IMG/VR virus record: IMGVR_UViG_3300011547_000001
Origin: an uncultured virus (IMG/VR IMGVR_UViG_3300011547_000001)
Lineage: Duplodnaviria; Heunggongvirae; Uroviricota; Caudoviricetes
Reading direction: 5' to 3' (one strand)
Length of the DNA: 43,934 nt
The notes under the pieces were generated by a model. The model did no database searches. It was given only the letters and a program-made list of their open reading frames with translations, and was not told the origin of the DNA. The translations under genes and the position numbers were made by a program. Within the stretch, counting starts at the first letter, position 1. The number at the start of each line of letters is the position of its first letter. Positions 15,305-36,359 of the stretch are shown here, one piece after another.

Positions 15305-15589
15305 TCAGTGCAGTACGGCGGGTCGTGCTGCGTTGTAAAACTCACGGAGAGAGCGCAATGCCTTCACCCGCGTTTCCCAGCACTCCACGCCGAACCCGAG
15401 GGCGGCGGATACATGCACGTAATCTGCATTGAAGCCCTTGCGTTTCATCGTGTCGTAAACCAGCTTCGCTGGGTGTTCCTTGGACTTGCTAGGATTGACG
15501 TTGAGGAGTTTGAACAACTCACGCGACTCCTTCATCCAATCCTGTCTTGCCTGTTTAGCTTCTTCCGTCACCATCATCCTTGTCCCCAT
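15305..15589 (-). CDS. Hypothetical protein
   Basis: ORF MGTRMMVTEE...; start uncertain. Confidence 0.65.
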   Translation of the reverse strand: MGTRMMVTEEAKQARQDWMKESRELFKLLNVNPSKSKEHPAKLVYDTMKRKGFNADYVHVSAALGFGVECWETRVKALRSLREFYNAARPAVLH

Positions 15590-16565
15590 TGCTACCCCCA
15601 GTAGGAATGAACTTGCGTTGATTACTGTCGATCGTTTCGGGCGTGTCATCGCCAAACAGATCACGAACTTGTTGTTGCGAAACCGCGATACCCTCATCCA
15701 CCAGGGCAATCACGGTATTGAACGCTTCTTTACGAGCTGTGAAAGAAGACGCGTCCAGACCGATTGCCCGACGAGTAAGCCACGGTGCATGCGTCAAGAT
15801 ACGTTTCCCCGATGGTGCGAGAATGATCAGGCGCTCGATCCGGCTAATGAACTGCTCGTTGTTGAGGATCATGGAATTGAGCCCCAACTTGGTTGCGAGT
15901 TTGTTTACTTCCTCGAACCATTCAGCCGGCGTCTTGATATCGGGTTCTTCCTGCTTTACCAGAACTGCTGCAGAACGACATTCGAGGACACGCTCGCTGA
16001 GATCGGTCAGACCCTCAGTGTAGCTATACGTGAGAGAGTCACGTTTGGCTTGATGGATGATGGGTTCCATAGGAGCGCCCTGGACTTCCAGCATGGACAC
16101 GTAGAGCATTGCACCCATCATCTCGGCATCTTCCTCGGAGAGGCCGAAGTTCTTAATCTGCCACTTGACCCATTCCGCATTGACGATCTTGGTGCGACTG
16201 ACGGGGTCCTCGTTGATCAACGACGGCATGGCGTGGATATTTGGCTTGGGTTTCTCGTAGCCAGGGTAGGTACCGTTGGCCATGGCCAGTTGACGCGACA
16301 GCCAACGCATGCGCTGTTGAATCGCCGTCATGAAAGCGATCTTCGGCACATGGTCGGTGGAACCATCCAGCTGACCCACCAGTATTGCCGCCTCTTCATC
16401 CATCGAGCGGTTGTATTGCATGAATCCGTAGTTGGCGAGTTCATCGGAAGTCCAGTCTGCCATCGGCAGTTCGTCGAAAGGACGATCGCAGTAACGAGCG
16501 AACGGATCTTCCTTCCCTTCTTCGAGCCAACGGAAGCCAGGAGCAGGTTTCTTTTCAGTGGACAT
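15555..16565 (-). CDS. Hypothetical protein with an internal WxxW module
   Basis: 336 aa containing PSLINEDPVSRTKIVNAEWVKWQIKNFGLSEEDAEMMG. Confidence 0.85.
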   Translation of the reverse strand: MSTEKKPAPGFRWLEEGKEDPFARYCDRPFDELPMADWTSDELANYGFMQYNRSMDEEAAILVGQLDGSTDHVPKIAFMTAIQQRMRWLSRQLAMANGTYPGYEKPKPNIHAMPSLINEDPVSRTKIVNAEWVKWQIKNFGLSEEDAEMMGAMLYVSMLEVQGAPMEPIIHQAKRDSLTYSYTEGLTDLSERVLECRSAAVLVKQEEPDIKTPAEWFEEVNKLATKLGLNSMILNNEQFISRIERLIILAPSGKRILTHAPWLTRRAIGLDASSFTARKEAFNTVIALVDEGIAVSQQQVRDLFGDDTPETIDSNQRKFIPTGGSNGDKDDGDGRS

Positions 16566-16767
16566 AAATCACCTTCAAGTAAGTTTCAACAAAGATAACC
16601 GTAAACGCGATCAACGTAATAATGAACATCACCAGAAAGAAAGTTGCTTCAATGGTGGTAGTCCGTTGTTGAAAGTCATGATCGCGACGGTCGAGAACCC
16701 TGGTCGTGTAATACAACCCAACCAGGTAAAGCAAAGCGGCCAGGTAGGCAAAGAAAACGTAGATCAT
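16555..16767 (-). CDS. Small two-TM membrane protein
   Basis: 70-aa hydrophobic ORF immediately after P4. Confidence 0.7.
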   Translation of the reverse strand: MIYVFFAYLAALLYLVGLYYTTRVLDRRDHDFQQRTTTIEATFFLVMFIITLIAFTVIFVETYLKVIYVH

Positions 16768-16775
16768 GTTCTGCC

Positions 16776-16793
16776 CTAATGATGTAGGCGTGA
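16776..16793 (-). promoter_or_regulatory. Early promoter P4
   Basis: Minus strand TCACGCCTACATCATTAG. Confidence 0.6.
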
Positions 16794-16806
16794 AAAGACC
16801 CAGAAG

Positions 16807-17319
16807 TTAATGAACGACCCCAATAGGTTTACCTTCCCGTATTCCGTTCAACACCCCCGGACAATCTTCGTTACCCGTGAATACGAACCCAAGCGATTCG
16901 TAGAACTTCAAGGCACGTTTATTGTCGTCGTAGCAGAACACGGAAACGCCGTTGTAGGGATCGCGGTTAATAACCGACATGACCATCAGCGAACCAAAGC
17001 CCGTGCTACGGCATTCTTCAACGATAAACAAACTAGCAATCTCGTTAGGGTTGCCGTAGTCCATAGCCAGGAATCCAATGATCCGACCAGTCCCGAAATT
17101 GGTCAAGATGTACAGATCACTGATCGTGATCAAGAACTCTTCGGCCAAGGCGAAATCTTCGTCGTCATAATGAAGCTCTGGATCGGAGAACTGGTTCTCG
17201 TACTTCATCAGTTCGATGTAAAGGGCGATCACTTGCTCACGCTGTTCCGGGAACAGGTCTTCTGGTTTTACAAACTGTCCTGAACAACCCTTGCTCATGT
17301 CTATCGCAGCAAGTCCCAT
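16807..17319 (-). CDS. GNAT family N-acetyltransferase
   Basis: IASLFIVEECRSTGFGSLM (acetyl-CoA motif A) and NKRALKFYESLGF (motif B). Confidence 0.9.
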   Translation of the reverse strand: MGLAAIDMSKGCSGQFVKPEDLFPEQREQVIALYIELMKYENQFSDPELHYDDEDFALAEEFLITISDLYILTNFGTGRIIGFLAMDYGNPNEIASLFIVEECRSTGFGSLMVMSVINRDPYNGVSVFCYDDNKRALKFYESLGFVFTGNEDCPGVLNGIREGKPIGVVH

Positions 17320-17346
17320 GTTGATCTTCCCATAATTAAAATGCGT

Positions 17347-17379
17347 TAAAAACAGAGCAGAGGCGAACCCCTGCCCTGT
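17347..17379 (-). terminator. Rho-independent terminator
   Basis: Minus strand acagggcagggg-ttcg-cctctgctctgt followed by TTT. Confidence 0.75.
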
Positions 17380-17400
17380 ATAGTGATTGTGCCGTAGTGC

Positions 17401-17820
17401 TTACTTACGCTCGCAATCGAAGAACACTACACCACGATGCAGGTCAGCATCAGGGTCGTCCTTTGTTGCGTATAGGAACATCATGAAGTACGGCTTGCCA
17501 TCGTTGTCATCATGCTTGAAGATGATGGCCCGACTGGTACCAGCAAAGCCACTGATAGAGCCACCCACCTCGTTGGTGAAAGTCTTCTCTTCACGAATCG
17601 CACCATTCGGCTTAACGATGAATTCCTTATCGTTTTGCAGAATGGTAGTCGTCATGTCGATCGGTTGGTTGTCGGTGAGGAACTGGGCAGCGGCATCGAC
17701 TTCGTTGTCGCTGAGCTTCTTGCACTCGTACTTGGTTTCGGTCGAGATATAAACGCTCGTATCAACCGAAGCAAAGCACACAGTTGGGACGAGGAGGAAC
17801 AAGAGACCAAAAGCTTTCAT
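17401..17820 (-). CDS. Exported/periplasmic protein
   Basis: Signal peptide MKAFGLLFLLVPTVCFA; Cys pair (YEC ... VFFDC). Confidence 0.8.
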   Translation of the reverse strand: MKAFGLLFLLVPTVCFASVDTSVYISTETKYECKKLSDNEVDAAAQFLTDNQPIDMTTTILQNDKEFIVKPNGAIREEKTFTNEVGGSISGFAGTSRAIIFKHDDNDGKPYFMMFLYATKDDPDADLHRGVVFFDCERK

Positions 17821-17831
17821 GCGAGATATCC

Positions 17832-18149: not shown

Positions 18150-18503
18150 CTATCCCTCCTTAAGACGTTTGATGAGCCTTAGTTGTTGACGAAGTGCGGC
18201 GCCGGTCGTGGCAAAGTAATCCTTCAGTCGAACAGTCCCAAGCATCCGCAGTCCTTCATCGATTTCAAGAGACGTGTCGTCACGCTCTTCTCTTTCCTTT
18301 GCATCGAAGAGTGCGTAAGCGCGATTGAGTGCAATGCGACGATCGCAACCCATTTGTTCCATGTACCACTCCACCCACTCGTTCGAGGGGTGATTACCAC
18401 AGGCCGATTTAAAAACAGGTTCTACAGAAACAGCCCGTTTAATGCGCGAAAGAACAAGGGCCGCATTCGACCCAAGTACTTCAGAGATTGCTTTGTGTTT
18501 CAT
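18150..18503 (-). CDS. WxxW-module protein
   Basis: EPVFKSACGNHPSNEWVEWYMEQMGCDRRIALNRA. Confidence 0.8.
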   Translation of the reverse strand: MKHKAISEVLGSNAALVLSRIKRAVSVEPVFKSACGNHPSNEWVEWYMEQMGCDRRIALNRAYALFDAKEREERDDTSLEIDEGLRMLGTVRLKDYFATTGAALRQQLRLIKRLKEG

Positions 18504-18820
18504 ACCTTTATTTCCTGTTTCATGTCACGGCTAAACCGATGGGCGGCCATCCAGAGGATAGCATCAAGGGTATTCGTTTTAACGTGATTGTAACGCCCAC
18601 CGAAAATGCCCTTTTCGTTACCCATCTTCTCAGCGGTTTCATGAGAAACGTTGTGTTTCGCCATACACCAAACAACCCACAGAGGATTCAAGTTGATCTG
18701 GCTATCCACGTACAGCGGTGGTTCATGGGTGGTGTCAATTTGCTGTATCGTTTCTCGCGCAACTCCCACGCCAGGTGGGAGGAAATCAACGAGACCATAT
18801 GGGTCAATGGTGATTTTCAT
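18500..18820 (-). CDS. WxxW-module protein
   Basis: EPPLYVDSQINLNPLWVVWCMAKHNVSHETAEKMG. Confidence 0.8.
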   Translation of the reverse strand: MKITIDPYGLVDFLPPGVGVARETIQQIDTTHEPPLYVDSQINLNPLWVVWCMAKHNVSHETAEKMGNEKGIFGGRYNHVKTNTLDAILWMAAHRFSRDMKQEIKV

Positions 18821-19005
18821 ACGAACTTCCTTTTAGGAGGGGCGATGGCCATGCGTGACTCACCTCGCTGGATGGCCTCTCCAAACGAGGTGTTGTATGT
18901 GTCCATGCACCAGAGGACCCAGGCGTAACTCAGTTCACCTGTGCCTGGATCCACTAGCTTTGGTTCTGTTGTTATTTTCTTTTCGTTTTTGATATCTTTT
19001 TTCAT
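18817..19005 (-). CDS. Stand-alone WxxW-module protein (62 aa)
   Basis: EPKLVDPGTGELSYAWVLWCMDTYNTSFGEAIQRG; AAGGAG RBS. Confidence 0.8.
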   Translation of the reverse strand: MKKDIKNEKKITTEPKLVDPGTGELSYAWVLWCMDTYNTSFGEAIQRGESRMAIAPPKRKFV

Positions 19006-19006
19006 A

Positions 19007-20887
19007 TTACTCCTTCTGTAGTTTAATTGATTTGCCCAGCTTCAGGGCAGTGCTTTCGAAGCTGTAAAGAGCTTCTACCATAGGTTTCTCACCTTGGTTC
19101 AAAAAGAAGATCAGGTCAACCTGCTCTTCCCAGGTGAGCTCCGCCCTACGGCCAGGGATGGAAGTCTTCAGCTTGCCTTTCTTGTCGAATGGCAGATCTT
19201 GCAGACCGAGTCCCCTTTTGTTTAGCTCCGCACGCAGATAACGGATCCAGGAATTGGAGAACCCATTGTCTTCCAGCTTCTTGTGAGCCTTCCTGCAAGC
19301 GACCCACTTCGGATCAAGGTTGACTTTGGAATCAACCACGGTGTTATGATAGGCCGAGATCGCCGCAAAATACCCACCAAAACGCGACACGTTCTTCTGA
19401 TACCACGCGGTCCAGGCAATGGCGTTGTCCCAACCGTCATCTTGCATGAGCGGTGGAGCAGGCTCTGTCGGCGGCGTCTTGCTTGCCAACAAAGTATCCA
19501 GTCCGTTCACAAGCATTTCAAGTTCGGGCGTTGGAACACCCATGCGACGCGCAGCACGTCCGCCAGCAGCTTCTGGATAAAGAAAAGGTGACGCAGCAAG
19601 CCGACGGATAGGATTATCTCCGTCGAAATCAGCTTGCTGGCTTTTACCAGCTACGTTCGACAGCAGTGCCTCGTGACTGTACGAGAGTTCAGCTTCACCC
19701 GTGCTCTTTGTGGGCGCCTCATAAGGACGGCAACCATCGCTTCCACTGCGGTTCAGCACCTGATCCAGCAGAGGTGCCGAATCGATCATCTCGAGCTTCT
19801 TGTGCAACGGTGGAGAAATCTCTGTCTCTCCAATGTCGCGATTGCTCGTGATCACACTCCTCCCTGTGAACGGAATGGCACCATCGAGATGTTTGCGAAG
19901 GATGACAACCTCGTTGAAGCCCTGAGGGTCCCCGAATTTCAGGAGCTCGAGCAACTTCGCTGCGCCAGGCAAGATCACCCGATGATCGAAACCTGGAATA
20001 CCCTTGAAGGAGTACGCCAGATCTTTGGTTACTTGGAAGTGCTCCTGCCAACCGCTGCCGGTGACAACAACGCCGACGATGTTCTTGATCTCCTTGTTCT
20101 CGAAGCTCTCGAAGTCGACGTTGAGTTCTTCCAGGGTCTTGCCCGACACGGTTTCACCGCGCAGGATCACCGAACCACCATCTTCCATGTTGACGGTTAC
20201 CGACAGAGCCCTGAGGGGCTTCGTCGCCGCAGTCTGGATAAAGCTCAGGAGAGTCCCCGTCGCAAGCAGGATGTTAGACCCGTTATGGCGAAGGATGGTT
20301 CGAAGATCAACCGCCATGGTCTTCTTGGCAACCCCGTGAGGATTGAGCACGGTGATCCCTGCTTTGGCTGCACGGCGGTACTTGAGGGACTCGTCAAGCC
20401 ACGCTTTGGTGAGCGACCCATCGTTGATGGCTTTCAGAGGTTCGCCGAAACCAAACATCCCGCGAATGCGTTCTTTTTGCTCGGGGGTCGCTTCTGGTGG
20501 TTCTTGAAGGTAAAAACCCGCATCCAGATAGCTGGTTGGCTTGGGGGCTTGTGCCATGAAGTTGGCGAAGTCGGCGCTTTGCTGTGGAGTGGGGGTGTGG
20601 GCGGCGCGCCAGGCGAACTCATCGACATTGAGGGCGCCTTCACGCAGCAGGTTGGCCACGGGATTTTTGGAAGACAGCACCAGGTCGCGGATGTAGCGGC
20701 CGATCTCGCTCACTGGCTCTTGAGCCATGACGTGTTTGAACACACGTTCTTCCATGACCTTTGGATCAGTCATCATCTCACGAATTTCTTCGTTGGTCAT
20801 GCCCTCGATGAGAGCGCGAACAGAAGCAACACCTTCCTCGGCGACCATTTGATCAACCATTTTCAACAGCTGGGTTTTCTCGTTCAT
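19007..20887 (-). CDS. 626-aa mosaic protein with degenerate RNAP beta-prime motifs and a WxxW module
   Basis: LRKH..FTGRSVITS, VLNR and ADFDGD, then EPAPPL...AWTAWYQK. Confidence 0.85.
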   Translation of the reverse strand: MNEKTQLLKMVDQMVAEEGVASVRALIEGMTNEEIREMMTDPKVMEERVFKHVMAQEPVSEIGRYIRDLVLSSKNPVANLLREGALNVDEFAWRAAHTPTPQQSADFANFMAQAPKPTSYLDAGFYLQEPPEATPEQKERIRGMFGFGEPLKAINDGSLTKAWLDESLKYRRAAKAGITVLNPHGVAKKTMAVDLRTILRHNGSNILLATGTLLSFIQTAATKPLRALSVTVNMEDGGSVILRGETVSGKTLEELNVDFESFENKEIKNIVGVVVTGSGWQEHFQVTKDLAYSFKGIPGFDHRVILPGAAKLLELLKFGDPQGFNEVVILRKHLDGAIPFTGRSVITSNRDIGETEISPPLHKKLEMIDSAPLLDQVLNRSGSDGCRPYEAPTKSTGEAELSYSHEALLSNVAGKSQQADFDGDNPIRRLAASPFLYPEAAGGRAARRMGVPTPELEMLVNGLDTLLASKTPPTEPAPPLMQDDGWDNAIAWTAWYQKNVSRFGGYFAAISAYHNTVVDSKVNLDPKWVACRKAHKKLEDNGFSNSWIRYLRAELNKRGLGLQDLPFDKKGKLKTSIPGRRAELTWEEQVDLIFFLNQGEKPMVEALYSFESTALKLGKSIKLQKE

Positions 20888-20922: not shown

Positions 20923-21231
20923 CTACCAGTCTCTGATGCGGTGAATGTCGGCGTTTATGTCCGGATTGAATTCACCTTTTTGAATGTAGAGTTTCGCGAT
21001 GTTCTTTGCGATGTTAGTGGAAACTCGTTTACGGAACTTGTACCAGGTCACCCATACAGGATTAACACCCCCTCGCCCATTTCGGAGCGAGGGAGGGTCC
21101 ATGGCTATGATTGCTTCCTGGCGTTTTGCGTGAGCAGCTTTATACTCACACTGATGCTCGGCCATATACAACGTGGTCCAAGCGTCATTGATCTCACCGT
21201 TAGGCAAGATCGGCTCAGGCCTAGCGCTCAT
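20923..21231 (-). CDS. Protein made of two WxxW-type modules
   Basis: PEPILPNGEINDAWTTLYM...A and PPSLRNGRGGVNPVWVTWYK...A. Confidence 0.8.
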   Translation of the reverse strand: MSARPEPILPNGEINDAWTTLYMAEHQCEYKAAHAKRQEAIIAMDPPSLRNGRGGVNPVWVTWYKFRKRVSTNIAKNIAKLYIQKGEFNPDINADIHRIRDW

Positions 21232-21243
21232 GGCGTCGACCTT

Positions 21244-22085: not shown

Positions 22086-22103
22086 GTAGTAATATAGATA
22101 CCA
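22086..22103 (-). promoter_or_regulatory. Early promoter P5
   Basis: Minus strand TGGTATCTATATTACTAC, containing exact TATATTAC. Confidence 0.8.
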
Positions 22104-22128: not shown

Positions 22129-22821
22129 TCAGGATTTATCAGGTTCCACAAAATTGAGTGGGAGAATCTGGTTGTAGTACTGAATGCGCTGGTAGTGGAG
22201 CGCATGAATTACATGCACACTGTCGATCCAGTGGAAGGTTGTTTCACACCACCGCTGCCACGCAGCGCCGTTCTTACGTGGGTCTGGTTCACTGGCGTAG
22301 ATACCACCAAGCTCCGGATGACGCGGTGGTTTTACAGAGCGAATTGGGAAACCGAGTGCCAACTCGTAAAACTTCGCGTCCACGTCACTTTCAGATAATC
22401 CAGGATTGTCGGCTACGTACATTTCGATCCAGTCTTTCTTGTACCCCAGAAACTTTGCCGGATAGTCGTTGAGCGCCTCTTTATTAGTTCGACGTTGTTC
22501 CCGGATGCGGCGACCGCTTTCCACTTGCTTGTCAAAGAGCACCTGGCTCAGCTCTTTGATCCTTGCAGCGCGACCTTCGGGTGTATTGGGGTGTCCGTTG
22601 AAAACTCGGTTGTACACCACCGCGGCGCTGTAGAAGTCGACCGATGGGTTACGCAGGCGGTATCTGCGAATCCAGGCGGTGCGATCATCGAGTTGTTGGG
22701 CGACCGGATCTTGTTCTCGAACGATCTGGTTTTCAGCGTGCAGGCGACGAATAAACCCGTACTTGAAACCAGTGCAGAGATTCTCCCAGCGTTTAGCAAA
22801 GAAGGCTTTAATACGATTCAT
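22129..22821 (-). CDS. Hypothetical protein with degenerate WxxW-type modules
   Basis: TAWIRRY, KDWIEMY and EPDPRKNGAAWQRWC. Confidence 0.8.
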   Translation of the reverse strand: MNRIKAFFAKRWENLCTGFKYGFIRRLHAENQIVREQDPVAQQLDDRTAWIRRYRLRNPSVDFYSAAVVYNRVFNGHPNTPEGRAARIKELSQVLFDKQVESGRRIREQRRTNKEALNDYPAKFLGYKKDWIEMYVADNPGLSESDVDAKFYELALGFPIRSVKPPRHPELGGIYASEPDPRKNGAAWQRWCETTFHWIDSVHVIHALHYQRIQYYNQILPLNFVEPDKS

Positions 22822-22826: not shown

Positions 22827-23159
22827 TTACTCGTAAGGTGGGAAACGATTGACTTTGAGACGAGGAACCAGTGGGCCAATTTCGCCGGTTATTGGGTTGC
22901 GGACCATATCCAGTAAAGGATACTGCGGTTCGTAGGTTTTGTTATCTGGTTCTTTGAGCCCACACCACTCGTCGATAACATCGTTTTGCAGACGGAGTTC
23001 GGTTTCAATGGTGCGTCGTTCTCGGGTTACAAGATAACCTTTGGTTTGAACGAGAAAGCCCAGTGGCTTCAGGTAGATCGTGTCCCAGTCAGGGTTAACT
23101 GTGCCGTCTAACATCAAAAGAGGCTGGGGTCGATGAAAATACTGATCGCGAAGATTCAT
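22827..23159 (-). CDS. Hypothetical protein with a partial module
   Basis: PQPLLMLDGTVNPDWDTIY; GAGG RBS. Confidence 0.75.
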   Translation of the reverse strand: MNLRDQYFHRPQPLLMLDGTVNPDWDTIYLKPLGFLVQTKGYLVTRERRTIETELRLQNDVIDEWCGLKEPDNKTYEPQYPLLDMVRNPITGEIGPLVPRLKVNRFPPYE

Positions 23160-24610: not shown

Positions 24611-24922
24611 TTACAGTTTAAGGCCTTTGACAAAGATGCACCAGTAGAGGGTTGCCCAGCCTCCCAGGTGCAATACCAGCAGCAACGCCGCACCAATCAT
24701 TTCCCAAGGGTTCCTGAAGGGCCAGTGGCGCTGCATGCGCTGCCAACGCGTGCGTTTAGGGGGAATGTACGGCTGATCCCCCAGTAGCTCCAGAAACGCC
24801 TCAGCGGAGCTTATGGAAGCCAAATGGTCAGCCACCATTTGTTTGGCCTCCTCAATGTTGTTTGGAACGGGTTCACTGATAATGTTCTTTTTATCAGGGA
24901 ACTTGTAGACTCTCGCCGTCAT
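24611..24922 (-). CDS. Membrane protein
   Basis: 103 aa with a C-terminal TM helix. Confidence 0.75.
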   Translation of the reverse strand: MTARVYKFPDKKNIISEPVPNNIEEAKQMVADHLASISSAEAFLELLGDQPYIPPKRTRWQRMQRHWPFRNPWEMIGAALLLVLHLGGWATLYWCIFVKGLKL

Positions 24923-25124
24923 TGGTTCTACGCTCCAGTTCTTGTTTTACCATCTCGAGATGCCGACGAGTGATGCTGATCGGAAACTCAAACCGATAGA
25001 AGCTGAAGGTAAATCCTCCCTCCAGCATCTTAGGCATTTCTTCTATTTCGTGCGGCTTGAGCTTTGGGAGGATATCCCTTATCCGCCGATCTTCCATGGA
25101 GAGGAAAGGCAGCACGTTGCTCAT
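24894..25124 (-). CDS. Hypothetical protein homologous to the C-terminus of 25597-26175
   Basis: GFTFSFY...HLEMVKQELERRT versus GNTFSYY...HLELVKQELRSRT. Confidence 0.8.
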   Translation of the reverse strand: MSNVLPFLSMEDRRIRDILPKLKPHEIEEMPKMLEGGFTFSFYRFEFPISITRRHLEMVKQELERRTNDGESLQVP

Positions 25125-25600: not shown

Positions 25601-26175
25601 ACGGTTCTGCTCCTCAGTTCTTGCTTGACGAGTTCCAGGTGTTCGATACCGATCACCAGGGTCGGAGTGTAGTTGTAGTAGCTAAAGGTATTACCCTTTG
25701 GCAGTTGGTCTTGGATCACCAGCAACTCATTCAGCGGTAAACCGCCGAGCACTTGCTTGACCTGCCAGAGGGTTTTACCTTTCTTATTGTCTTCGGCTTC
25801 TTGTTGGTGTTTGAGTGCAATGCCGAAACGAACAGCTTCCGTAGGCGGGATACGGTCAAAGTAACTTACATTCAAAACCCACGCCATGGAAAGCTTGAAG
25901 CGATCACCCAGGATCATTTGCGGTTCTTGGTGTTCGAACTCGAAATTGGCGTCGTAGTTCAGCAGATTCTTTTCCAGGGTGTTCATAACGTTGAGCGCAA
26001 TATTCACCTTGCCGGGCGTGGCTTCGATCAGTTCGTAAACCGGAGGGTGTGGTCGCCCGTTAGCCCGCAGGATGTTCCAGTTCAGCCAGCTGATCCAATC
26101 CAGCGATGGTGCTTGTTCGACGTGCGTCCAGAGAGATGGCTCTTCGTCTTGGACGGGATACGGAAACTTGTTCAT
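25597..26175 (-). CDS. Protein with two WxxW-type modules and a C-terminal domain shared with 24894-25124
   Basis: EEPSLW...PSLDWISW and QEPQMILGDRFKLSMAWV...TEAVRFG. Confidence 0.85.
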   Translation of the reverse strand: MNKFPYPVQDEEPSLWTHVEQAPSLDWISWLNWNILRANGRPHPPVYELIEATPGKVNIALNVMNTLEKNLLNYDANFEFEHQEPQMILGDRFKLSMAWVLNVSYFDRIPPTEAVRFGIALKHQQEAEDNKKGKTLWQVKQVLGGLPLNELLVIQDQLPKGNTFSYYNYTPTLVIGIEHLELVKQELRSRTV

Positions 26176-26238: not shown

Positions 26239-26859
26239 TTAGCTCCTGTACTCAATGTTCAACGGTCGGTTGTCATCACGCCAGGTTTTGTAGGTACCGT
26301 CCGCATTGAAGATGAGGGTGATATGTGGGAAATTACCACCACTAATGCATTCCTGGACAGCTGCCAGAACAGCGGTGTTGAAACGCACTTTGTGGTCAAT
26401 AGCAAACCACACAGCGTAATCCCAGTTGAACTGACCACCGTGAAATGCGTCTTTGAACGTAGGCCGAGGAACCCCACCATTTACACGCTCAGTCAGATGC
26501 CGATAGAGGTTATAATCCCGATCAGTTTTCTTGCGATACTTCTTGAGCTTTTGATTTTCGGCCCAGGCTCTGAAATCACGATGATACGATGGCTCTGGAA
26601 GAGATGCCTTGAGAAGCACAAGCACGTCGGCTGTTGAGAGATCACTCTCCCTGGACATCTTCTTTTCGTAGACAGCAGACCATGCACTAATCACCGACTT
26701 TTCCCAGGGAGGATTGTTCATACCAATCCACTTGGCTTTTGTGGCGGCGTCCCATTTCTTAGCTTGCCTTTCCTTGTGTTTAATGTAGCCAGTGACAAAA
26801 GTCCAGGTGCCGAGAACCAGTACCACTGCGGCGATAACTTCTTTGAGACCGAATTCCAT
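26239..26859 (-). CDS. Membrane-anchored protein with a degenerate module
   Basis: N-terminal TM helix; PRPTFKDAFHGGQFNWDYAVWFAIDHKVRFNTAV. Confidence 0.8.
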   Translation of the reverse strand: MEFGLKEVIAAVVLVLGTWTFVTGYIKHKERQAKKWDAATKAKWIGMNNPPWEKSVISAWSAVYEKKMSRESDLSTADVLVLLKASLPEPSYHRDFRAWAENQKLKKYRKKTDRDYNLYRHLTERVNGGVPRPTFKDAFHGGQFNWDYAVWFAIDHKVRFNTAVLAAVQECISGGNFPHITLIFNADGTYKTWRDDNRPLNIEYRS

Positions 26860-26862: not shown

Positions 26863-27099
26863 TTACTCCTTTCCGTTGTTCTTGAGGAAGTCCTTACCGA
26901 GCATCTTCGCAGCTGGGAGTGAGATGCCGTAGAAGTCACGAGCCCATTTCAGCCACTCCCAACTAAGCCCGCACTTCAGATCTCCCTCGATCTGTGGTTC
27001 ACCGGCGTTACGATGGTGGTCGCTTCCAGTCCGAGGCATCCAGGTGCGAAGATAGGTATGGACTGGAGCGTGGTTATTTTCATGCACAGTGAGTTTCAT
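26863..27099 (-). CDS. Near stand-alone WxxW-module protein
   Basis: EPQIEGDLKCGLSWEWLKWARDFYGISLPAAKMLG. Confidence 0.8.
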   Translation of the reverse strand: MKLTVHENNHAPVHTYLRTWMPRTGSDHHRNAGEPQIEGDLKCGLSWEWLKWARDFYGISLPAAKMLGKDFLKNNGKE

Positions 27100-29393: not shown

Positions 29394-29419
29394 GTAAAAC
29401 TCCTTGCATTAGTTACATC

Positions 29420-29437
29420 GTGGTAATATAGGTTTAA
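29420..29437 (-). promoter_or_regulatory. Early promoter P6
   Basis: Minus strand TTAAACCTATATTACCAC. Confidence 0.8.
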
Positions 29438-29453
29438 TAAATTGTGCGGTGCC

Positions 29454-29488
29454 AAAAATAAAGCCTTAGGGGACTAGGTCCCCTAAGG
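29454..29488 (-). terminator. Rho-independent terminator
   Basis: ccttaggggac-tag-gtcccctaagg followed by CTTTATTTTT. Confidence 0.85.
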
Positions 29489-29494
29489 TTGGTA

Positions 29495-30679
29495 TTACTG
29501 GGCGTCCTGGTAATCTGGACCGGCGTGCGTCAGGCGCTTGGTGTAATCGATCTGATACACGTTATGGATGTTCGGATGCCAGGCGTGCTTGAAGAGTGCT
29601 TCTTCCTTACGGAACTTGTTTGTCATGAGGCGCCGGGCGCCCTCTTCCCAGGCAACATCGAAGCCACAGGAATGGGTACGGCGGAACCATTGCACCCATT
29701 CCTTCGAAAGGGTGAGCCCGTTGGAGTCACGAGAATCCTTGATTTCCGGTTCAGTGGGCCCTTCCTCGATGCGGCGCTGGATGGCCTGGGTGAAACGCAC
29801 CATGGCGTTGATCGGGCTAACGACCTTTTCATCGCCGAGATCGATAACGAGCATGTTCTCGGTAACGCGAGGTTGGGCCAGACGACGTGCCACTTCTTTA
29901 CCCAGGGCACTCAGGTACTTGCGGCCGAAGGTTACGGGATTACCCACGGGACCGCAGGGAACAGTGAAGGAACCGCCCATCTGGAGATGGAGCGTCTGGA
30001 AGAAGCCGGTGAGCCAGGTGTCGGAGCAGTTTTCCAGGGTGCGGACGAGCTGCTGCTCTTTATATTCTTCGAGCGGCTCTTCGATCACGGCACGCTCTTC
30101 CAGTGCCATCTCACCCATTCGAGCACGTTCGTAGAGAACGGAGATGGCCTGGGAGCGGAACTTGGGCAACAGCGTGATCGGAGTAGGGCAGCCGTCGAAG
30201 GTGAAGGTGGTGGGCTCGACGTCGTTGGGATTGCGCTTGACTTCGGTGTTTTTCAGGAAGTTGAACACCTGCTCGGTGGTCATGGCTTCGAGGGTTTTCA
30301 TGCTGCTTTGTGCTTTTTTGTCGTCCACGTTTTCATTCCTTGGTGAAGCATCATGTTGTCTGGCAAAGGCCAGGAGTTCGGAGAGGCGTTCCGCGGCGTC
30401 TTCTACGCTGCCAGGAATGTCACATTGCACGAGATCGGTGCCCGAGATATTGATGACGAAGCGGAAATCCTTCAGGGAGTCATGTTCCTCACCGACGCGC
30501 GGAGCGCTGTACTTGATCTCGGTGCCTTCGTCGATAATCCGCACCACGAGCATGCAGTCACCGATGGTCATGAACGTATTACCTTTTTGGTCACTGAGGT
30601 AAGTCCAGTTATTACGGATGAAGATGTGGCTGAGTTCCTCACCTTCTTTGACCATCTTGGCAACCAATGGACTGGTCAT
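29495..30679 (-). CDS. 394-aa protein with a C-terminal WxxW module
   Basis: EPEIKDSRDSNGLTLSKEWVQWFRRTHSCGFDVAWEEG. Confidence 0.85.
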   Translation of the reverse strand: MTSPLVAKMVKEGEELSHIFIRNNWTYLSDQKGNTFMTIGDCMLVVRIIDEGTEIKYSAPRVGEEHDSLKDFRFVINISGTDLVQCDIPGSVEDAAERLSELLAFARQHDASPRNENVDDKKAQSSMKTLEAMTTEQVFNFLKNTEVKRNPNDVEPTTFTFDGCPTPITLLPKFRSQAISVLYERARMGEMALEERAVIEEPLEEYKEQQLVRTLENCSDTWLTGFFQTLHLQMGGSFTVPCGPVGNPVTFGRKYLSALGKEVARRLAQPRVTENMLVIDLGDEKVVSPINAMVRFTQAIQRRIEEGPTEPEIKDSRDSNGLTLSKEWVQWFRRTHSCGFDVAWEEGARRLMTNKFRKEEALFKHAWHPNIHNVYQIDYTKRLTHAGPDYQDAQ

Positions 30680-31449
30680 TGCTGTTCCCCCTTTACCTTG
30701 TGAATGAGTGTGACTGAGCCGTTGCTGACATCGACGGTGAAATCGAAATCAGGCCAGGAGGTTGGGTAATACTTCTTGATGAGCAACCTGGCGGTGAGTT
30801 TGAACGCCTCGGACAGATTAGCGCACATCGTGTTCTTTACCAGCCACAGGCACCAGCTCCGACCAATCCGGATATTCTCCTTGTTACTGCCATGGATCTC
30901 CTGGATCGGGGGACTCCCAACGACAGTCCCAATGGACTCTTTGACCAACCCGCGATCCTCACCGCCAGATTCAATGAGCCGTATGTATTTGATAGTGCGG
31001 TGGTGCTCGCTTGATAAACTTGAATCGAATACCGTAAGTCGCAGCAGCACGTCGCGATTACCGCGGACACCGCCGACGATGGCGTCCAACAGAGGAGCGA
31101 AATAACCCTGACGCCCGCGCTGGGTGGTGATGTAGTGAGTGAATCTACCCAGCTCGAAAAACGCGCTATAGATGGTGTGCATCGCGGTCTCACGCACGTC
31201 GTAAACGGCGTATTGGTTCGGACTGAACTCACTGACCATTTCATCGGGAATGTTTCTGATGTAACGGCGCTTTACGTCGTTTTCCTTATTCCCGAAGATA
31301 GCGGCGAGTTGTTTCTCGTCCGAGCATGGAACCCCTCCTTCCCCGATGAACTCCTCGCCGTTCATGGCGGCAAGCAGTGGATAGGCTCCGGCGTAGTCCA
31401 GTTGGATAATATCCAATGCAATGACATAATCTTCGTCATGAGCTGCCAT
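30676..31449 (-). CDS. 257-aa protein with a C-terminal WxxW module
   Basis: PPIQEIHGSNKENIRIGRSWCLWLVKNTMCANLSEAF. Confidence 0.85.
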   Translation of the reverse strand: MAAHDEDYVIALDIIQLDYAGAYPLLAAMNGEEFIGEGGVPCSDEKQLAAIFGNKENDVKRRYIRNIPDEMVSEFSPNQYAVYDVRETAMHTIYSAFFELGRFTHYITTQRGRQGYFAPLLDAIVGGVRGNRDVLLRLTVFDSSLSSEHHRTIKYIRLIESGGEDRGLVKESIGTVVGSPPIQEIHGSNKENIRIGRSWCLWLVKNTMCANLSEAFKLTARLLIKKYYPTSWPDFDFTVDVSNGSVTLIHKVKGEQQ

Positions 31450-31764: not shown

Positions 31765-31775
31765 ACTACAACGGT

Positions 31776-33492
31776 TTACAGGCCGTTCAGGAATGCCAGC
31801 CCGGCAGGAGCGCCGATAGCTTCGCTTGGAGCATTGCCCAGGACCAGAGTCGCGTTACCGCTGCGACCGGCCATGACGTTGCGACCCACGCGGGAACCGA
31901 TGGCGCCCAGGCCCAGGCCGATGGTGCCGGCGAGGGTGTAGCGACCGAAGGTGCTTTCGATGTTGTCGTCCACGAGTTCACCGAGGAAGAACGCACCGAT
32001 CGCACCTGCCAGGGTACCCACGCCACTGCCCACGGTCAGGCTACCGCTGGCGAAGGTTTCCATGCCGCCACCGATCACCGCCGCACCAGCCGCGATCCAG
32101 GAGCTGCGAATGCCTTGGTCGCTTTCACCGGTGAGGGTGAAACGCGAACGGGCTTCGACGTAGCTCTGAGCCGAAGGTTGGTACTCGGTTTTCAGCCAGG
32201 TCAGATACAGGACGGTGGTCTGCTCGTTGGCCGGCTGGGCCAGGAAGTTGTAGATGGCCTGGTCCTTGTTCTGGTTCTTCATGAACGGCTCGGCCGAGTA
32301 CGCCTGGAAGGCGGCGTTGGTCGCGGCATTGGTGCCCAGGAAGGTGGTCCAGGCTTCCTCGCGTTGTTCAGGGGTGGTGAGACCCATGGTGATGAACGCT
32401 TGCAGGAAGGTTGCGTAGTCTTGCTGTTGCTCAGCAGCGCCGTTGGTGTTGGCGTTGTTGTTTGCTGCGGTGTTTGCGTTAGCCATGGTGTTGCCCTCTT
32501 CGGAAGTAACGATAGTTGGTTGCTGTTCAGGAGCTGCGGTATTTTCCGCAGTGGTTGGTTGAACATGGGTATGCGTACTGCTGGCTTGGAAACCTTCAGG
32601 GATAGAAGTCCCCCTGATTTCGTTGACGGTTTCCAATGGGTCTTTGAAGACGGTGGAGATGTCCCCTACCGGCGACGTCGCACGGAAAATATTGCCGTGG
32701 GCGTCGGTCAGGATCTTGAGTTCTTCACCAGCCGGTGTAGTGAAGATGTGGGTGAGGAAAGTCGTGTCGAGACCGGCAAGCGTACCTTGGTGGGTACATC
32801 CGTCGATCAGCTTCGAGATAACCCGATCACGGTGCTTGGCCATGATCATGTCGGTCCAAGAAACACGATTCAGAACGGGGATCGGAGCCANNNNNNNNNN
32901 CAGTTGCGCCAGGGGCTACCGTAACAGCAACCCCACCGTCACCCAACTCTTCGATGAGTGGGAACTTGTGGTTGAACTCAGGGGCAGGCGCTTCGCTACC
33001 CAGCGCTTCTTCGAGCGCCCCGTGAATACGCCGGCCGAGGATGATCGTTTCGGCAGTGACACCCTCGTCGGTTTTAGGGAAATCACCATCACCGATTACT
33101 TTCACGGTTACGCCCTTGTCGCCCTGGATAGCGTCACCCACTTTCACATCCTCTACCGCTTTAACGCCGTCAGCCTTTTCGACCGAGGTACCGGCCATAA
33201 CCGTAACCGAGCCTTTCAGCTCGGTTACGGGAATAGCGCCGTTGGTGTTCTCGTAGTCGCTCTTGTCACCCGCTTTAACCTTGGTCATGGACCAGGAGGT
33301 CCCGAACTTCTGGTTGATCAGGCGCAACGCAGCGGCACGTTGAGACTGGTGGAACGTCTTCGAGTCCAGGAGCTGAACGCGGAGATACCCTTGTTGCTTT
33401 TCGACCGGTACGCCTTGCGAGCGCAGTGCTTTCAGCGCGGAAACAATTTCTTCGACATGTGCGCTGAGTTCGGCATTCTGATCTTTCGACAT
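31776..33492 (-). CDS. Probable single ~570-aa gene across the N gap, with C-terminal glycine-zipper membrane helices
   Basis: Closing gap 32891-32900 joins ...APGAT-V-APIPVLNRVSWTDMIM in frame; AAGGAG RBS before ATG 33492; GxxxG-rich C-terminus. Confidence 0.7.
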
Positions 33493-33553
33493 AATCTCAA
33501 ACTCCTTCACTCAGGTGAATGTTCATAACAAATAATCTTGTTATTTATTCACC

Positions 33554-33571
33554 TAAGTGATGTAGATTTGA
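33554..33571 (-). promoter_or_regulatory. Early promoter P7
   Basis: Minus strand TCAAATCTACATCACTTA. Confidence 0.75.
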
Positions 33572-33591
33572 AATCAACTGTAACTTAAAAA

Positions 33592-33975
33592 TCAGCTACA
33601 GACGATAGTGGGCTTTTCAGTAGGTGCCGATGCGACAGGGCGCCGTACGAACTGCAAGTGGTCACTACGAACCATTGAAAATGGTCCATAATCAGTCATG
33701 CCGTCTTTGTCGACATACTTCAGGTCGCACTCGTAGTGCTTATTCTGAGAAACGACCCAGACACCGGTATCGGTATTGTTCTCGAACCGGTAGAACGATG
33801 ACTCGTAACGAGGGTTGCCATCACGAGCACAGGGAATGTACTTGATAAGCACTACCTCGGTTCCGACGTCATCATGGATGGTGGTGGCACCCGTGATGAC
33901 GCAGATATCACCCTCCTCTTTGGGCCCTTCTGGCGGTAGGAGTACTACGCGGCTTTTGGTCGAAAGTGTTGGCAT
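33592..33975 (-). CDS. Hypothetical protein, paralog of 33985-34293
   Basis: VGTEVVLIKYI...WVVS...DHLQ versus IGREVILIKFL...WMVS...EHLR. Confidence 0.8.
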   Translation of the reverse strand: MPTLSTKSRVVLLPPEGPKEEGDICVITGATTIHDDVGTEVVLIKYIPCARDGNPRYESSFYRFENNTDTGVWVVSQNKHYECDLKYVDKDGMTDYGPFSMVRSDHLQFVRRPVASAPTEKPTIVCS

Positions 33976-33984
33976 GGTCCTTCC

Positions 33985-34293
33985 TCAGCAAATTTGTATC
34001 TTGGGGCGACTATCGATGTCTGGTGGGGTCCTCCTGAGATGCTCCTCGTAAATAAGGACCTTCTTCATTGGGTAGGTATCCCCGGTCGATAGAGCGGCTA
34101 ACAGAGGTTCGCCATTCGTAGCGCTCACCATCCAGCCAGACCAGCTGGAGTGATAAATGGTGTCACCTTCCTTTACCTTCTCACCAGCCTCGAGGAACTT
34201 GATCAGGATGACCTCCCGTCCAATATTCGCGCGGCAGGTCAAATTGAAACAGTCCGTGATGAAAAGTTTTTCGCCTACTTTGAAATATTTCAT
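33985..34293 (-). CDS. Hypothetical protein, paralog of 33592-33975
   Basis: 102-aa ORF. Confidence 0.8.
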   Translation of the reverse strand: MKYFKVGEKLFITDCFNLTCRANIGREVILIKFLEAGEKVKEGDTIYHSSWSGWMVSATNGEPLLAALSTGDTYPMKKVLIYEEHLRRTPPDIDSRPKIQIC

Positions 34294-34302
34294 TGCACCC
34301 CC

Positions 34303-34737
34303 TTAGGGTTTCTTGAACCCGTAATCGGCTTTCCAGAATACCAGCTCTTTACCGAGCCAGTCCGAGAATGCAGCATCCAGAGCGAGTACGTCGTACTTGT
34401 CAGGATCGTAGGTGATCGACATGTGATGGAGTGGGGTTACAAACGAATGCTCGTAACCAGCTTCCTTCAGACGACGGAACTCCTCGGAGAGGTCCTTGCT
34501 CGACATGTGGAAGACGTAGCCGTCGCCGAGGTGTTCGAGCTTTGTGAGGTGAGCACGGAACTCACGACGAGGATCCATGACCGCCAGAGGCTTGTCATGC
34601 TTACGCTCGTCGTAGACCAGTGTACAGTGCAGGTCGTACTTCGGAGGGGCCACGTTGGCTTCCAGGAGCTTGGCGAAGATCTCTTCAACGTACTCCGGCT
34701 TCAGCTCGGCGGAGATATAACTGTAATCACGCTCCAA
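34303..34737 (-). CDS. acb1: 2H phosphodiesterase, Acb1/T4 57B-like putative anti-CBASS nuclease
   Basis: TTG start after AAGGAG; YISAEL, LHCTLVYD and G.EHSF...HMSITYD give two HxT/S motifs; ~144 aa. Confidence 0.8.
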   Translation of the reverse strand: MERDYSYISAELKPEYVEEIFAKLLEANVAPPKYDLHCTLVYDERKHDKPLAVMDPRREFRAHLTKLEHLGDGYVFHMSSKDLSEEFRRLKEAGYEHSFVTPLHHMSITYDPDKYDVLALDAAFSDWLGKELVFWKADYGFKKP

Positions 34738-34948
34738 GAGTGTTCTCCTTTTTCTTTTCAACGAAGATGGAATGGATGCAGTTGCTTTTGAGAACGCGGT
34801 TGTTGACATCACATGCCACTCGCAGTCTCGATTTGTCCAGTTGGAGATCAACAGCGCTAAACGAAGAACCGTTAGCATAAAAGAAGATCCCCGGTCTCAG
34901 TCCATCAGGACTGAACCGGTCGATCCCTTGAAGCTTAAGGAGATCCAT
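34727..34948 (-). CDS. Hypothetical protein
   Basis: ATG 34948 after AAGGAAAGG; overlaps the acb1 start. Confidence 0.6.
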   Translation of the reverse strand: MDLLKLQGIDRFSPDGLRPGIFFYANGSSFSAVDLQLDKSRLRVACDVNNRVLKSNCIHSIFVEKKKENTLGA

Positions 34949-34967
34949 AACCTTTCCTTGTAAAGAC

Positions 34968-34998
34968 AAAATAAAAACCGCCAGTGTGACCTGGCGGG
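34968..34998 (-). terminator. Rho-independent terminator
   Basis: ccgccag...ctggcgg followed by TTTTTATTTT. Confidence 0.8.
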
Positions 34999-35003
34999 AT
35001 TTG

Positions 35004-35207
35004 CTAACTCATGCGAACGACATGTGAAACTGCAACGCGTTTGATAAGTCCGCGCTTGATGCGGCTCTGCACACGGAGAATCGCCTCACGCTGTGGGCCG
35101 TCTTTAGGTAAGACACGATCCGCCAAAAGGCAATTCCACAGGATTTCGATTCGCAGTGCCTTGATGCAAAACGGGGTGTAGACCGTGTAAAGCTCTTTGA
35201 GCTTCAC
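35004..35207 (-). CDS. Hypothetical protein
   Basis: 67 aa with a GTG start, followed by a terminator. Confidence 0.65.
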   Translation of the reverse strand: MKLKELYTVYTPFCIKALRIEILWNCLLADRVLPKDGPQREAILRVQSRIKRGLIKRVAVSHVVRMS

Positions 35208-35209
35208 GA

Positions 35210-35383
35210 TTAGTTCCAGCCCTTGAAGCGAGGGTTCTTGATGTGAACCTCGACGAAGGTACGGCCGTCACGGCATTTGGCCTGGAGACGTTTTACGGCA
35301 GCTTCGGCGGCTTCGAAGGTCAACTCGTTACCACGATAACTGGCACGTTCTGCATTGACAAACATTTCGTATTCGCTTTCCAT
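35210..35383 (-). CDS. Hypothetical protein (57 aa, MESEYEMF)
   Basis: AAGGA RBS; starts just after the upstream stop. Confidence 0.7.
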   Translation of the reverse strand: MESEYEMFVNAERASYRGNELTFEAAEAAVKRLQAKCRDGRTFVEVHIKNPRFKGWN

Positions 35384-35384
35384 T

Positions 35385-36359
35385 TCATTGTTCCTTCTTG
35401 ATACGGACGTAATAGGGTGCTGTGTGCGAGGAGGAGTAAGGTACGATTTCGGCTTCCTTACCTTCGAAAACAGCTGGGTTATTTCGGACAACGTGGTCCT
35501 TAGCTTCTTGCAAAGCCTGTGACCAAGATTGTGCTGGATCATGATCATCCTTACCTGTCATCTGTGCCGTATAGGTGATCTTGGTGGCTCGCCATTCCAA
35601 CCAGTCGCGATTGACGGCGAACTGATTGATACCCGAGGGATGAATGATCGGCGGAGGTGGAGACTGGGTGTCGAGACCGAACAGGTGCGGGTATTCACGG
35701 ACAGTGTCGGTAGCCAGCTGACGAACGTCTTCAGATGTGAGAAGAGGAATGACCGGTGTCTTGAATGGCATCTCCGCAGCTTCTTGTTGAGGACCACCGA
35801 AAGCAAGCCACCACTTCTTACGGTCGTCTGGTGTCATGAAATGATCGAGTTCTTCAAGGGTCTTGGCGTCGATCGCATAAAGGGATTTGATGCTGGCAAA
35901 CCCCTCCGGCGCTTCAGTCCTCTCGACAATACCACCAAGGAACCCTGACGCAAAACTGTCAGCAAACCCTTCCGGGACTTTGATGTCATTCAGATGATCG
36001 AAATACCACTTCTTGTTCTGGAGGCATTCACGAACTGCCTCACGAAGCAAGTGCCGAAGCAACTTGTGATTTTCGAAGGCTGGATTGAGCACGGTGATCA
36101 ACCCGCCCACGGTGATCTGTGCGACCGGCGCCGGAGATACGTCGAACGCGTAGAAGGTAACGACTGGACGTTCAATGCCATCGACGTCCATCAGCCACAC
36201 ACGGGTGAACGCATTGGCACGAATGCAGGTATGCTGAAGCTTCCACGAGCCACGGAGACTCTCCAATGCGTCGTAGAGTTCTTCCATCGAGAGTTCGTCC
36301 TTCAAGAAACGATCAGGATCGAACTCGATTTCTATTCCATTAACAAGGTAAGTCATCAC
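35385..36359 (-). CDS. 324-aa protein: N-terminal domain paralogous to 36368-36655, C-terminal WxxW module
   Basis: VTFYAFDVSPAPV and PPPIIHPSGINQFAVNRDWLEW. Confidence 0.85.
   Translation of the reverse strand: MMTYLVNGIEIEFDPDRFLKDELSMEELYDALESLRGSWKLQHTCIRANAFTRVWLMDVDGIERPVVTFYAFDVSPAPVAQITVGGLITVLNPAFENHKLLRHLLREAVRECLQNKKWYFDHLNDIKVPEGFADSFASGFLGGIVERTEAPEGFASIKSLYAIDAKTLEELDHFMTPDDRKKWWLAFGGPQQEAAEMPFKTPVIPLLTSEDVRQLATDTVREYPHLFGLDTQSPPPPIIHPSGINQFAVNRDWLEWRATKITYTAQMTGKDDHDPAQSWSQALQEAKDHVVRNNPAVFEGKEAEIVPYSSSHTAPYYVRIKKEQ

Follow-up and report, generated by a model that had tools for sequence, protein, structure and literature searches.

Why should a set of otherwise unrelated phage proteins share one short, tryptophan-containing stretch? 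The question is raised by a sequence of 43,934 nucleotides from an uncultured member of the Caudoviricetes (IMG/VR record IMGVR_UViG_3300011547_000001), the whole of which is referred to below as the window. An initial annotation of this DNA, made from the sequence alone, had described a module of about 40 residues with the pattern 'EP...WxxW' in 14 proteins, which it called early, and had proposed that the module serves as an address or docking domain. We find that the module is a genuine, portable protein-level domain, recurring far beyond chance in nine window proteins and in about 65 proteins outside the window, and we regard it as a mobile unit that is shared among small, probably early accessory proteins in jumbo phages of the EL-like (phiKZ-type) kind. 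As to what it does, we tentatively favour a small binding scaffold whose copies have diversified.

The module spans about 42 residues, in which an E-P-x-L arm leads into a W-x2-W-Y helix, a G-V-S turn and an A-x3-G helix. All peptides quoted in the initial annotation are present, on the minus strand, in the open reading frames (ORFs) that it named. The W-x2-W pattern occurs 15 times in the 73 minus-strand proteins of the window (14,057 amino acids (aa), 1.53% tryptophan), where simple arithmetic gives about 3.3 expected occurrences, and 13 of the 15 fall in proteins named by that annotation. For a statistical treatment, 12 aligned window segments were taken as a seed set and each protein was scored with a hidden Markov model (HMM) built without that protein; 8 of the 12 seed proteins scored above all 1,460 shuffled decoys. 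Because the seeds had been chosen for W-x2-W, a further control was run in which both tryptophans were kept and the remaining residues shuffled, with 500 controls per copy. For six copies none of the 500 controls scored as high as the real sequence, while the copies in g35385_36359 and g26863_27099 were matched by one and five controls, respectively; the four weak seeds, namely g19007_20887 (25/500), g30676_31449 (48/500), g22129_22821 (52/500) and the first copy of g25597_26175 (219/500), were not separable from their controls.

Additionally, an external-only HMM was built from 90 copies in non-window proteins, and compared with 1,460 shuffled decoys and, separately, with reversed sequences. 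It returned 11 matches in nine window proteins, scoring from 54.3 down to 8.1 bits and all above the decoys, the best of which reached 4.9 bits (best reversed sequence, -0.4 bits), and this bears out the recurrence that had been claimed. A window-only HMM run on the six-frame translation found no extra copy above noise, the best non-seed match (6.9 bits) being an out-of-frame piece. The longest exact DNA match between module-coding segments is 12 nt, so that there is no DNA-level repeat, as had also been noted from the sequence.

The robust copies are all encoded on the minus strand, within 15.5-36.4 kb. The highest score with the external-only HMM, which also provides the other bit scores of the window copies, belongs to the nearly stand-alone 62-aa protein g18817_19005 (residues 11-53, positions 18847-18975; 54.3 bits, leave-one-out E 1.7e-9), which carries a basic C-terminal tail and has full-length orthologues in P0060 and P0077 at 41-43% identity. 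It is followed by the 106-aa g18500_18820 (residues 31-70, 18611-18730; 51.0 bits, leave-one-out E 5.8e-9) and by g26863_27099 (residues 31-74, 26878-27009; 47.3 bits), a protein of 78 aa, or 58 aa from a later start, whose orthologues P0022, P0031 and P0020 are 44-60% identical and have a longer N-terminus. The 102-aa g20923_21231 is a tandem protein, with a strong second module (residues 44-84, 20980-21102; 45.4 bits) and a diverged first one (residues ~5-40, 21112-21219; 16.9 bits) in which the second tryptophan is replaced; the first copies in its orthologues score 17-23 bits. In the 394-aa g29495_30679 the module sits near the C-terminus (residues 308-353, 29621-29758; 44.9 bits), and the cargo part of this protein had no match in the family libraries searched or in the ESM Atlas. 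The 117-aa g18150_18503 (residues 27-65, 18309-18425; 37.4 bits) has full-length orthologues in P0037, P0048 and P0084-87 at 41-45% identity, and the 336-aa g15555_16565 carries its copy mid-protein (residues ~114-155, 16101-16226; 20.9 bits, leave-one-out E 8.2e-5).

The two remaining robust carriers are more diverged. The copy in the 324-aa g35385_36359 (residues ~234-275, 35535-35660) has a degenerate second helix and scores 10.4 bits, above all decoys. The 192-aa g25597_26175 holds a second diverged module at residues 83-120 (25816-25929; 9.7 bits, above all decoys) and a first at residues 11-50 (26026-26145; 8.1 bits), which scored above the decoys and failed the leave-one-out and fixed-tryptophan tests; an alignment with P0039, which likewise has two modules, takes in both of them (28% identity over 118 aa). 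The minus-strand ORFs 35210-35548 and 35385-36359 overlap by 164 nt as listed; the former probably starts at an internal Met, and the C-terminal tail of the carrier g35385_36359 is then probably real coding sequence. Short runs of N, seen as X in the translations, occur in several genes, for example within the ORFs 1522-1971, 3719-4366, 6141-6725, 32827-33510 and 40603-42552 and in the intergenic gap 11175-11207, and affect no module copy.

Thus, nine of the 14 claimed carriers stand as robust, and the other five, all on the minus strand, do not reach that level. Three appear marginal as carriers when judged by sequence comparison: the 626-aa g19007_20887, with a possible degenerate module pair at residues 475-554 (19226-19465; -0.3 bits), g26239_26859, with a possible degenerate module at residues 131-171 (26347-26469; 2.9 bits), and g22827_23159, where only the arm and first helix may be present at residues 8-39 (23043-23138; 3.4 bits). 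They matched 10, 5 and 6 external members at E <= 0.1, respectively, whereas none of 30 shuffles matched more than 2. For g19007_20887, alignments of 71-80 aa to the tandem proteins P0030 and P0028 were also obtained (E about 1e-3, set size 79). The copies claimed in g30676_31449 (residues 179-228, 30766-30915) and g22129_22821 (residues 119-195, 22237-22467) appear unsupported: the former is absent among the 40 best HMM matches listed, the latter scores 0.9 bits, and neither does better than its shuffles in phmmer. In pairwise phmmer comparison with the 65 external members these five proteins occupy ranks 10-14 of 73 (10.2-6.9 bits, against 6.6 bits for the next window protein), a ranking that depends partly on how they had been picked in the initial annotation.

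The claim that the module occurs alone, in tandem and fused to unrelated cargo was upheld. Some carriers consist of little else (62 aa; 78 or 58 aa), some hold two copies and others join it to further domains, and once the modules had been masked BLASTP found no similarity among the nine carriers (0 pairs at E <= 1e-3). The minus-strand ORF 24894-25124 (g24894_25124, 76 aa) is a module-free paralogue of residues 138-191 of g25597_26175 (37% identity, E 9e-8), so that the same cargo exists with and without the module, and the N-terminal domain of g15555_16565 (phrog_36034) has a short homologue without the module in a related complete phage genome, described below. Four of the carriers (g18817_19005, g18150_18503, g20923_21231 and g26863_27099) have full-length orthologues in other phages, with 37-60% identity among the matches listed, which indicates that at least these paralogues are old and separately maintained.

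Conservation across the family follows the order E (89%), P (98%), L/I, an N/S cap, W (100%), V/I/L, W (97%) and Y/F, and continues with the G-V/C-S/T turn, A (97%), G (74%) and L/I/M. Common to all orthologue groups are E-P, both tryptophans and the alanine together with the hydrophobic and turn pattern, and these residues look fold-building by residue type and helical spacing. Beyond them, the groups have extra conserved residues of their own, such as KWARD.YGISL.AA in the 26863-like and MR...C.R.VA..RAYA in the 18150-like proteins. Among the 90 external copies net charge varies between -5 and +8, 29 of them being net acidic, and strongly basic groups include the second module of proteins like gp133 of Pseudomonas phage EL and the basic tails on several stand-alone copies.

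To what extent does the family reach beyond the window? A profile of eight window copies (A1) was searched against 1,835,955,588 representative proteins and returned 77 at E <= 0.001, including 10 at E <= 1e-10, with E values down to 1e-15. Eight of the 77 are the window's own, and P0063, P0067, P0055 and P0075 were set aside as doubtful, which leaves about 65 members of 46-618 aa (median 150). One copy is present in 31 of them, two in another 31 and three in 3; 22 copies lie in the N-terminal third of the chain, 44 in the middle third and 36 in the C-terminal third. A terminal, cleaved targeting tag or signal peptide is ruled out by these positions, since copies occur anywhere along the chain, including internally. 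The smallest member, P0047, is at 46 aa essentially the module alone. Of ten clusters checked, four come from contigs of 217,967-237,275 bases; none is informatively named. The giant repetitive proteins P0063 and P0067 are probably false matches. P0055 and P0075 (365-368 aa) have a weakly REase_MTES_1575-like C-terminus and three or four N-terminal repeats, vEWQMxKHNISxEEAExKI, that match the second half of helix 1, the turn and helix 2 only (hhalign probability 85%, 18 columns); judged from the alignment, these repeats may be a distant relative of the module or a convergent hairpin.

The module is absent from Pfam-A, PHROGs, NCBIfam and the PDB sequences as searched, and the family is new to those libraries, in agreement with the initial annotation, which knew of no description. 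None of 20 window proteins matched Pfam-A 2025 over the module (the GNAT neighbour alone was matched) and none of the 65 external members reached a curated cut-off; in PHROGs v4 no match over the module was obtained for any of 22 window proteins, phrog_36034 being confined to residues 5-92 of g15555_16565; and in NCBIfam 20.0, 0 of 22 reached the cut-off. A search of 177,635 distinct PDB sequences with profile A2 gave one match at E 2.5, a synthetic nanobody and hence noise. A word-indexed search with A1 (27-88 aa) returned only the window's own two small proteins, the identical 62-aa protein being recorded on one contig of 167,934 bases, and a full-text literature search, judged from titles and abstracts, gave no description for WxxW in bacteriophage or for phage EL gp133.

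Among four cultured phages whose whole genomes were searched, EL gave two matches (E 6.8e-11 and 4.5e-9) and RisingSun, phiKZ and 201phi2-1 gave none. The EL proteins are gp133 (89 aa, Q2Z0U8), with two modules, and gp084 (143 aa, Q2Z0Z7), with one C-terminal module (38.7 bits); both are annotated 'hypothetical protein'. The tandem protein g20923_21231 is an orthologue of gp133 (38% identity by tblastn), and its tblastn search against 50,697 phage records returned nine, all EL-like Pseudomonas phages of about 210 kb with 38-41% identity. By megablast the segment 17800-21300 had no match among phages, and the 626-aa g19007_20887 had no relative by tblastn in viral_contigs or INPHARED. A family of lineage-specific early accessory proteins in a jumbo phage is of a familiar kind; what is unusual is that a shuffled 42-residue domain, and not an array of whole-protein paralogues, is shared.

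The module is predicted to be a confident, self-contained fold. An AlphaFold2 model of 50 residues, made with eight aligned sequences, has a mean predicted local distance difference test (pLDDT) score of 89.3 and a predicted template-modelling score (pTM) of 0.70, and begins with an extended arm, which holds a single internal bridge (residues 12 and 19), followed by helices at residues 21-31 and 35-48. In the model of the tandem protein g20923_21231 (102 aa, nine orthologues aligned; pLDDT 82.2, pTM 0.67) this layout appears twice, with helices at residues 16-26 and 30-43 and again at 58-68 and 72-85, followed by a low-confidence third helix after module 2. The same bridge-helix-helix layout in both halves confirms the diverged first copy, and the folds predicted for the module and for both tandem halves agree. 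The tandem model superposes on the BFVD model of EL gp133 with a root-mean-square deviation of 0.6 A over 79 columns (E 1.5e-6, TM 0.76/0.87), so that the two halves keep a fixed mutual orientation in these models.

Searches against solved structures gave no relative. Foldseek returned no match in the PDB at E <= 0.001, and VIA-align reached at best Z 3.6 with the module and Z 4.7 with the tandem protein, neither significant. All structural matches had Z < 5 and were marked by the tool as a common arrangement, which amounts to neither a fold assignment nor proof of a new fold. In the ESM Atlas there was no usable match for the tandem protein or for the 394-aa carrier g29495_30679. A predicted complex of two copies of the 62-aa protein, made with alignment A4 and without controls, scored 0.05 against a mark of 0.42 and speaks neither for nor against self-association.

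The genomic setting of the module genes identifies the kind of phage involved. Nearly all long ORFs of the window lie on the minus strand. A GroEL-like chaperonin at 7786-9456 (phrog_5725) shares 38-39% identity with its counterparts in Pseudomonas phage EL and Erwinia phage RisingSun, and library matches mark an RNase H at 37332-37862 and an RNA-ligase-like protein at 34303-34878, with a Pfam match for a GNAT acetyltransferase at 16807-17319. The protein at 40603-42552 we take to be a putative DNA ligase, reading it from its translation alone without a library match behind the label; its homologue in a complete IMG/VR phage record of 229,109 bases, G002, is 35% identical. The window is collinear with 55-91 kb of G002, where 21 of the 73 window proteins find a match by tblastn, and G002 also encodes a phiKZ-type capsid protein, internal head proteins, a divergent DnaB, a family B polymerase and an RNA-polymerase fragment. 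The annotated genes also follow one another as in EL, where RNA ligase, acetyltransferase and GroEL are gp126 ... gp137 ... gp146. The gene order and the collinearity with G002 indicate that the source of the window is an uncultured, EL-related jumbo phage of the phiKZ type.

Nine of the 11 robust copies lie in an island between the acetyltransferase and RNA-ligase genes (17.3-34.3 kb). The copies in G002 occupy the same island (73.7-78.8 kb), in four neighbouring ORFs with two copies each, and EL gp133 likewise lies there, between RNA ligase gp126 and acetyltransferase gp137. In the window the island extends over about 17 kb, as against about 9 kb in G002 and some 5 kb in EL, a variability of size that is typical of accessory genes; the module genes are clustered, co-oriented, lineage-restricted accessory genes in a variable island. 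Outside the island, a weaker module-like stretch, IPEPEV...GEWITWYRN (11.4 bits), was found in a G002 protein of about 220 aa (L013; 52124-52828, minus strand), and the EL carrier gp084 is far from the island. Elsewhere in the window there are further adjacent paralogue pairs on the minus strand that stand outside the module family: the Cys-rich 11927-12619 and 12673-13248 (phrog_8344), with repeated C-x2-C; 5308-5901 and 6141-6725, the first of which had no PHROG match at E <= 0.001; and 42630-43070 and 43080-43520 (phrog_12854).

When would these genes be expressed? The 12-mer YCTAYATYAYYW has eight matches in the window, all intergenic and on the minus strand, against 0.10 expected. Four of them precede gene runs with carriers: 33555-33566 is upstream of the run from 33510 to 29495, which ends in the carrier g29495_30679; 29421-29432 is upstream of the run from 29393 to 22129, including g26863_27099 and g25597_26175; 22087-22098 is upstream of the run from 22041 to about 17401, including g20923_21231, g18817_19005, g18500_18820 and g18150_18503; and 16777-16788 is upstream of g16555_16767 and the carrier g15555_16565. 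The other four lie at 5934-5945, 9494-9505, 14160-14171 and 43890-43901. A GC hairpin and a T run precede some of the copies, for example the one at 29421-29432, within 29394-29494. The 12-mer resembles a sequence that the EL annotation labels 'putative phage promoter' and that lies just upstream of gp132-gp133, and it is probably the early-promoter consensus of the EL-like clade. According to a review of jumbo-phage RNA polymerases (PMC7598289), the conserved AT-rich motifs that bioinformatic searches pick up upstream of operons in these phages were early promoters of the virion RNA polymerase wherever tested, and middle and late promoters could not be found in this way. Early expression of the module genes can thus reasonably be inferred, and the designation of the carriers as early proteins fits their position behind this probable early-promoter motif.

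What, then, does the module do? In the binding scaffold that we tentatively favour, the conserved residues build the fold and the variable helix faces give each copy its own binding specificity. The Glu-Pro-x-Leu arm with its tight turn would pack back on the helix-turn-helix hairpin, whose tiny core of two Trp, Tyr/Phe, Ala and Gly would be clasped by the Pro-containing arm; the exposed helix faces, which differ between orthologue groups, would set the binding target of each copy; stand-alone copies would be small binders or inhibitors; and fused copies would tether the attached domain to the target of that copy. In P0047, which is hardly more than a module, the module must act by itself. Several points weigh against this scaffold: the binding partners of all copies are postulated, 'core' and 'surface' are assigned from helical periodicity and residue type, and the early timing is read from the promoter motif. 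Further, the invariant Glu is charged and could belong to a shared binding face, the group-specific conservation may partly reflect shallow divergence within groups, and half of the external proteins have two copies, so that the working unit could be a pair and not a single binder. The proposal of the initial annotation, by which all copies would bind one phage or host partner through the E-P...W-x2-W face and so deliver varied cargo, with stand-alone copies competing or regulating, is in our judgement rather unlikely. The same invariant residues, including the charged Glu, do recur in every orthologue group, the module sits on unrelated cargo at any chain position, and cargo is found with and without it; these points speak for the proposal, the charged Glu and the varied fusions being its best support. 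However, the shared residues look fold-building while the helix surfaces are group-specific and the charge varies widely, and it is this combination that leads us to favour a diversified scaffold over a common tag. Moreover, the carriers are few (two in EL and about four or five in G002), phiKZ, 201phi2-1 and RisingSun have no match, the window's putative DNA ligase, RNase H and RNA-ligase-like protein, which one would expect to act on DNA or RNA of the phage, lack the module, and the stand-alone copies are kept as orthologues, which fits a function of their own. A single common partner is thus not borne out, and an address for the phage nucleus is unlikely. In a review (PMC12908238), nuclear import is described as recognising cargo through surface residues of folded proteins, which differ between species, without a signal sequence, and a small folded domain could present such a surface. 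That the module is a transferable folded localisation domain, read through its E-P/W-x2-W face by a PicA/Imp1-type importer, an early-vesicle component or a host hub, is nevertheless very unlikely in our estimate. A single-sequence query with the chimallin of phiKZ (gp054) found nothing in G002, the window, EL or RisingSun and, having no positive control, is uninformative; the main text of Prichard et al. 2023 (PMC10299810) does not contain the terms 'virus EL', 'Elvirus', 'RisingSun' or 'Joad', which may be listed in its figures or supplements.

The abundance of tandem proteins suggests another possibility, namely that the working unit is a pair of modules, either in tandem or formed by associated single-copy proteins, which assembles the carriers into complexes. 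Two or three copies are present in 34 of the 65 external proteins and in each of the four neighbouring G002 ORFs, and the tandem was modelled as one unit (pTM 0.67) whose halves keep a fixed mutual orientation; against this, 31 of the 65 are single-copy and an isolated module is already predicted to fold confidently, and we consider such pairing unlikely. To a similar degree we doubt that the hairpin is a nucleic-acid-binding unit that contacts DNA or RNA in the manner of small helix-turn-helix (HTH) domains, HeH/SAP domains or homing-endonuclease repeats. Some groups are strongly basic, HTH, HMG and IHF helices are among the weak structural neighbours (Z 3.3-3.5), amid many unrelated rows, and the repeats of P0055 and P0075 match the hairpin. 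However, the wide charge range, with 29 of the 90 external copies net acidic, argues against such binding as a general property, no DNA-binding family was matched in Pfam or NCBIfam, the structural matches are all of the low-scoring kind noted above, and the link to the nuclease repeats covers its 18 columns only. Finally, a chance recurrence of a tryptophan motif, without common descent or fold, would agree with the five of the 14 claimed proteins that the HMM does not separate from shuffled controls, but it is refuted for the nine robust carriers, which stand far above the 1,460 decoys, have about 65 external relatives and share a consistent predicted fold; its probability is practically negligible.

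Most genes of giant phages belong to no known family, and one 42-residue domain here covers part of at least nine proteins, in addition to about 65 in uncultured relatives. The module defines a family that can be added to the domain libraries, and the cultured Pseudomonas aeruginosa phage EL, with gp133 and gp084, makes it directly accessible to experiment. Should the copies have different targets, they would represent a natural library of very small binders for host takeover. If they bind one target, the module would be a portable address domain, and no shared signal for nuclear import is described in the available part of PMC12908238; the localisation reading, if true, would provide the first portable address domain for a phage-built compartment.

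Comparison with known systems helps to place the module. With the UBA-like domains (the N-terminal domain of EF-Ts, HypK-THB, the UBA domain of NAC and ubiquitin-associated domains) it shares the form of a small helical hairpin with a conserved turn, and these domains act in protein-protein interaction, as the favoured scaffold would. When the second module is taken together with the helix after it, these domains are its best structural neighbours (7vmx_A, Z 4.5; 5nnp_G, 4.4; 1tr8_B, 3.4). However, UBA is a three-helix bundle, whereas the isolated module is predicted to have its N-terminal E-P-x-L arm in place of the third helix, although a low-confidence third helix does come after module 2 in the tandem model; no UBA-type Pfam family was found at E <= 0.01 in 20 window proteins or at E <= 0.1 in 69 further proteins. 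The likeness to UBA/NAC drawn in the initial annotation is therefore apt as a description and, at Z 3.3-4.7 and with no UBA Pfam match, carries no weight. Ribbon-helix-helix proteins have a similar order of extended arm, helix and helix, but their strand pairs with a second subunit, whereas the bridge predicted here (residues 12 and 19) lies within one chain, once in each half of the tandem. No ribbon-helix-helix protein stood out in the fold searches, and the idea was set aside, as the bridge is predicted to form inside a single module.

The capsid targeting sequence of phage T4 is a short N-terminal peptide that is cleaved. With it, and with import through PicA/Imp1, the notion of an address domain has in common that one shared element on different cargo decides the destination. 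The module differs from the T4 sequence in being a folded domain at any chain position, and from PicA/Imp1 import in that the latter, according to the review PMC12908238, uses no shared signal, and in that the window's DNA and RNA enzymes lack the module. Phage EL itself has the same gene order, with gp133 placed just downstream of its annotated promoter; it differs in having two carriers only, whereas the window holds at least nine in 21 kb.

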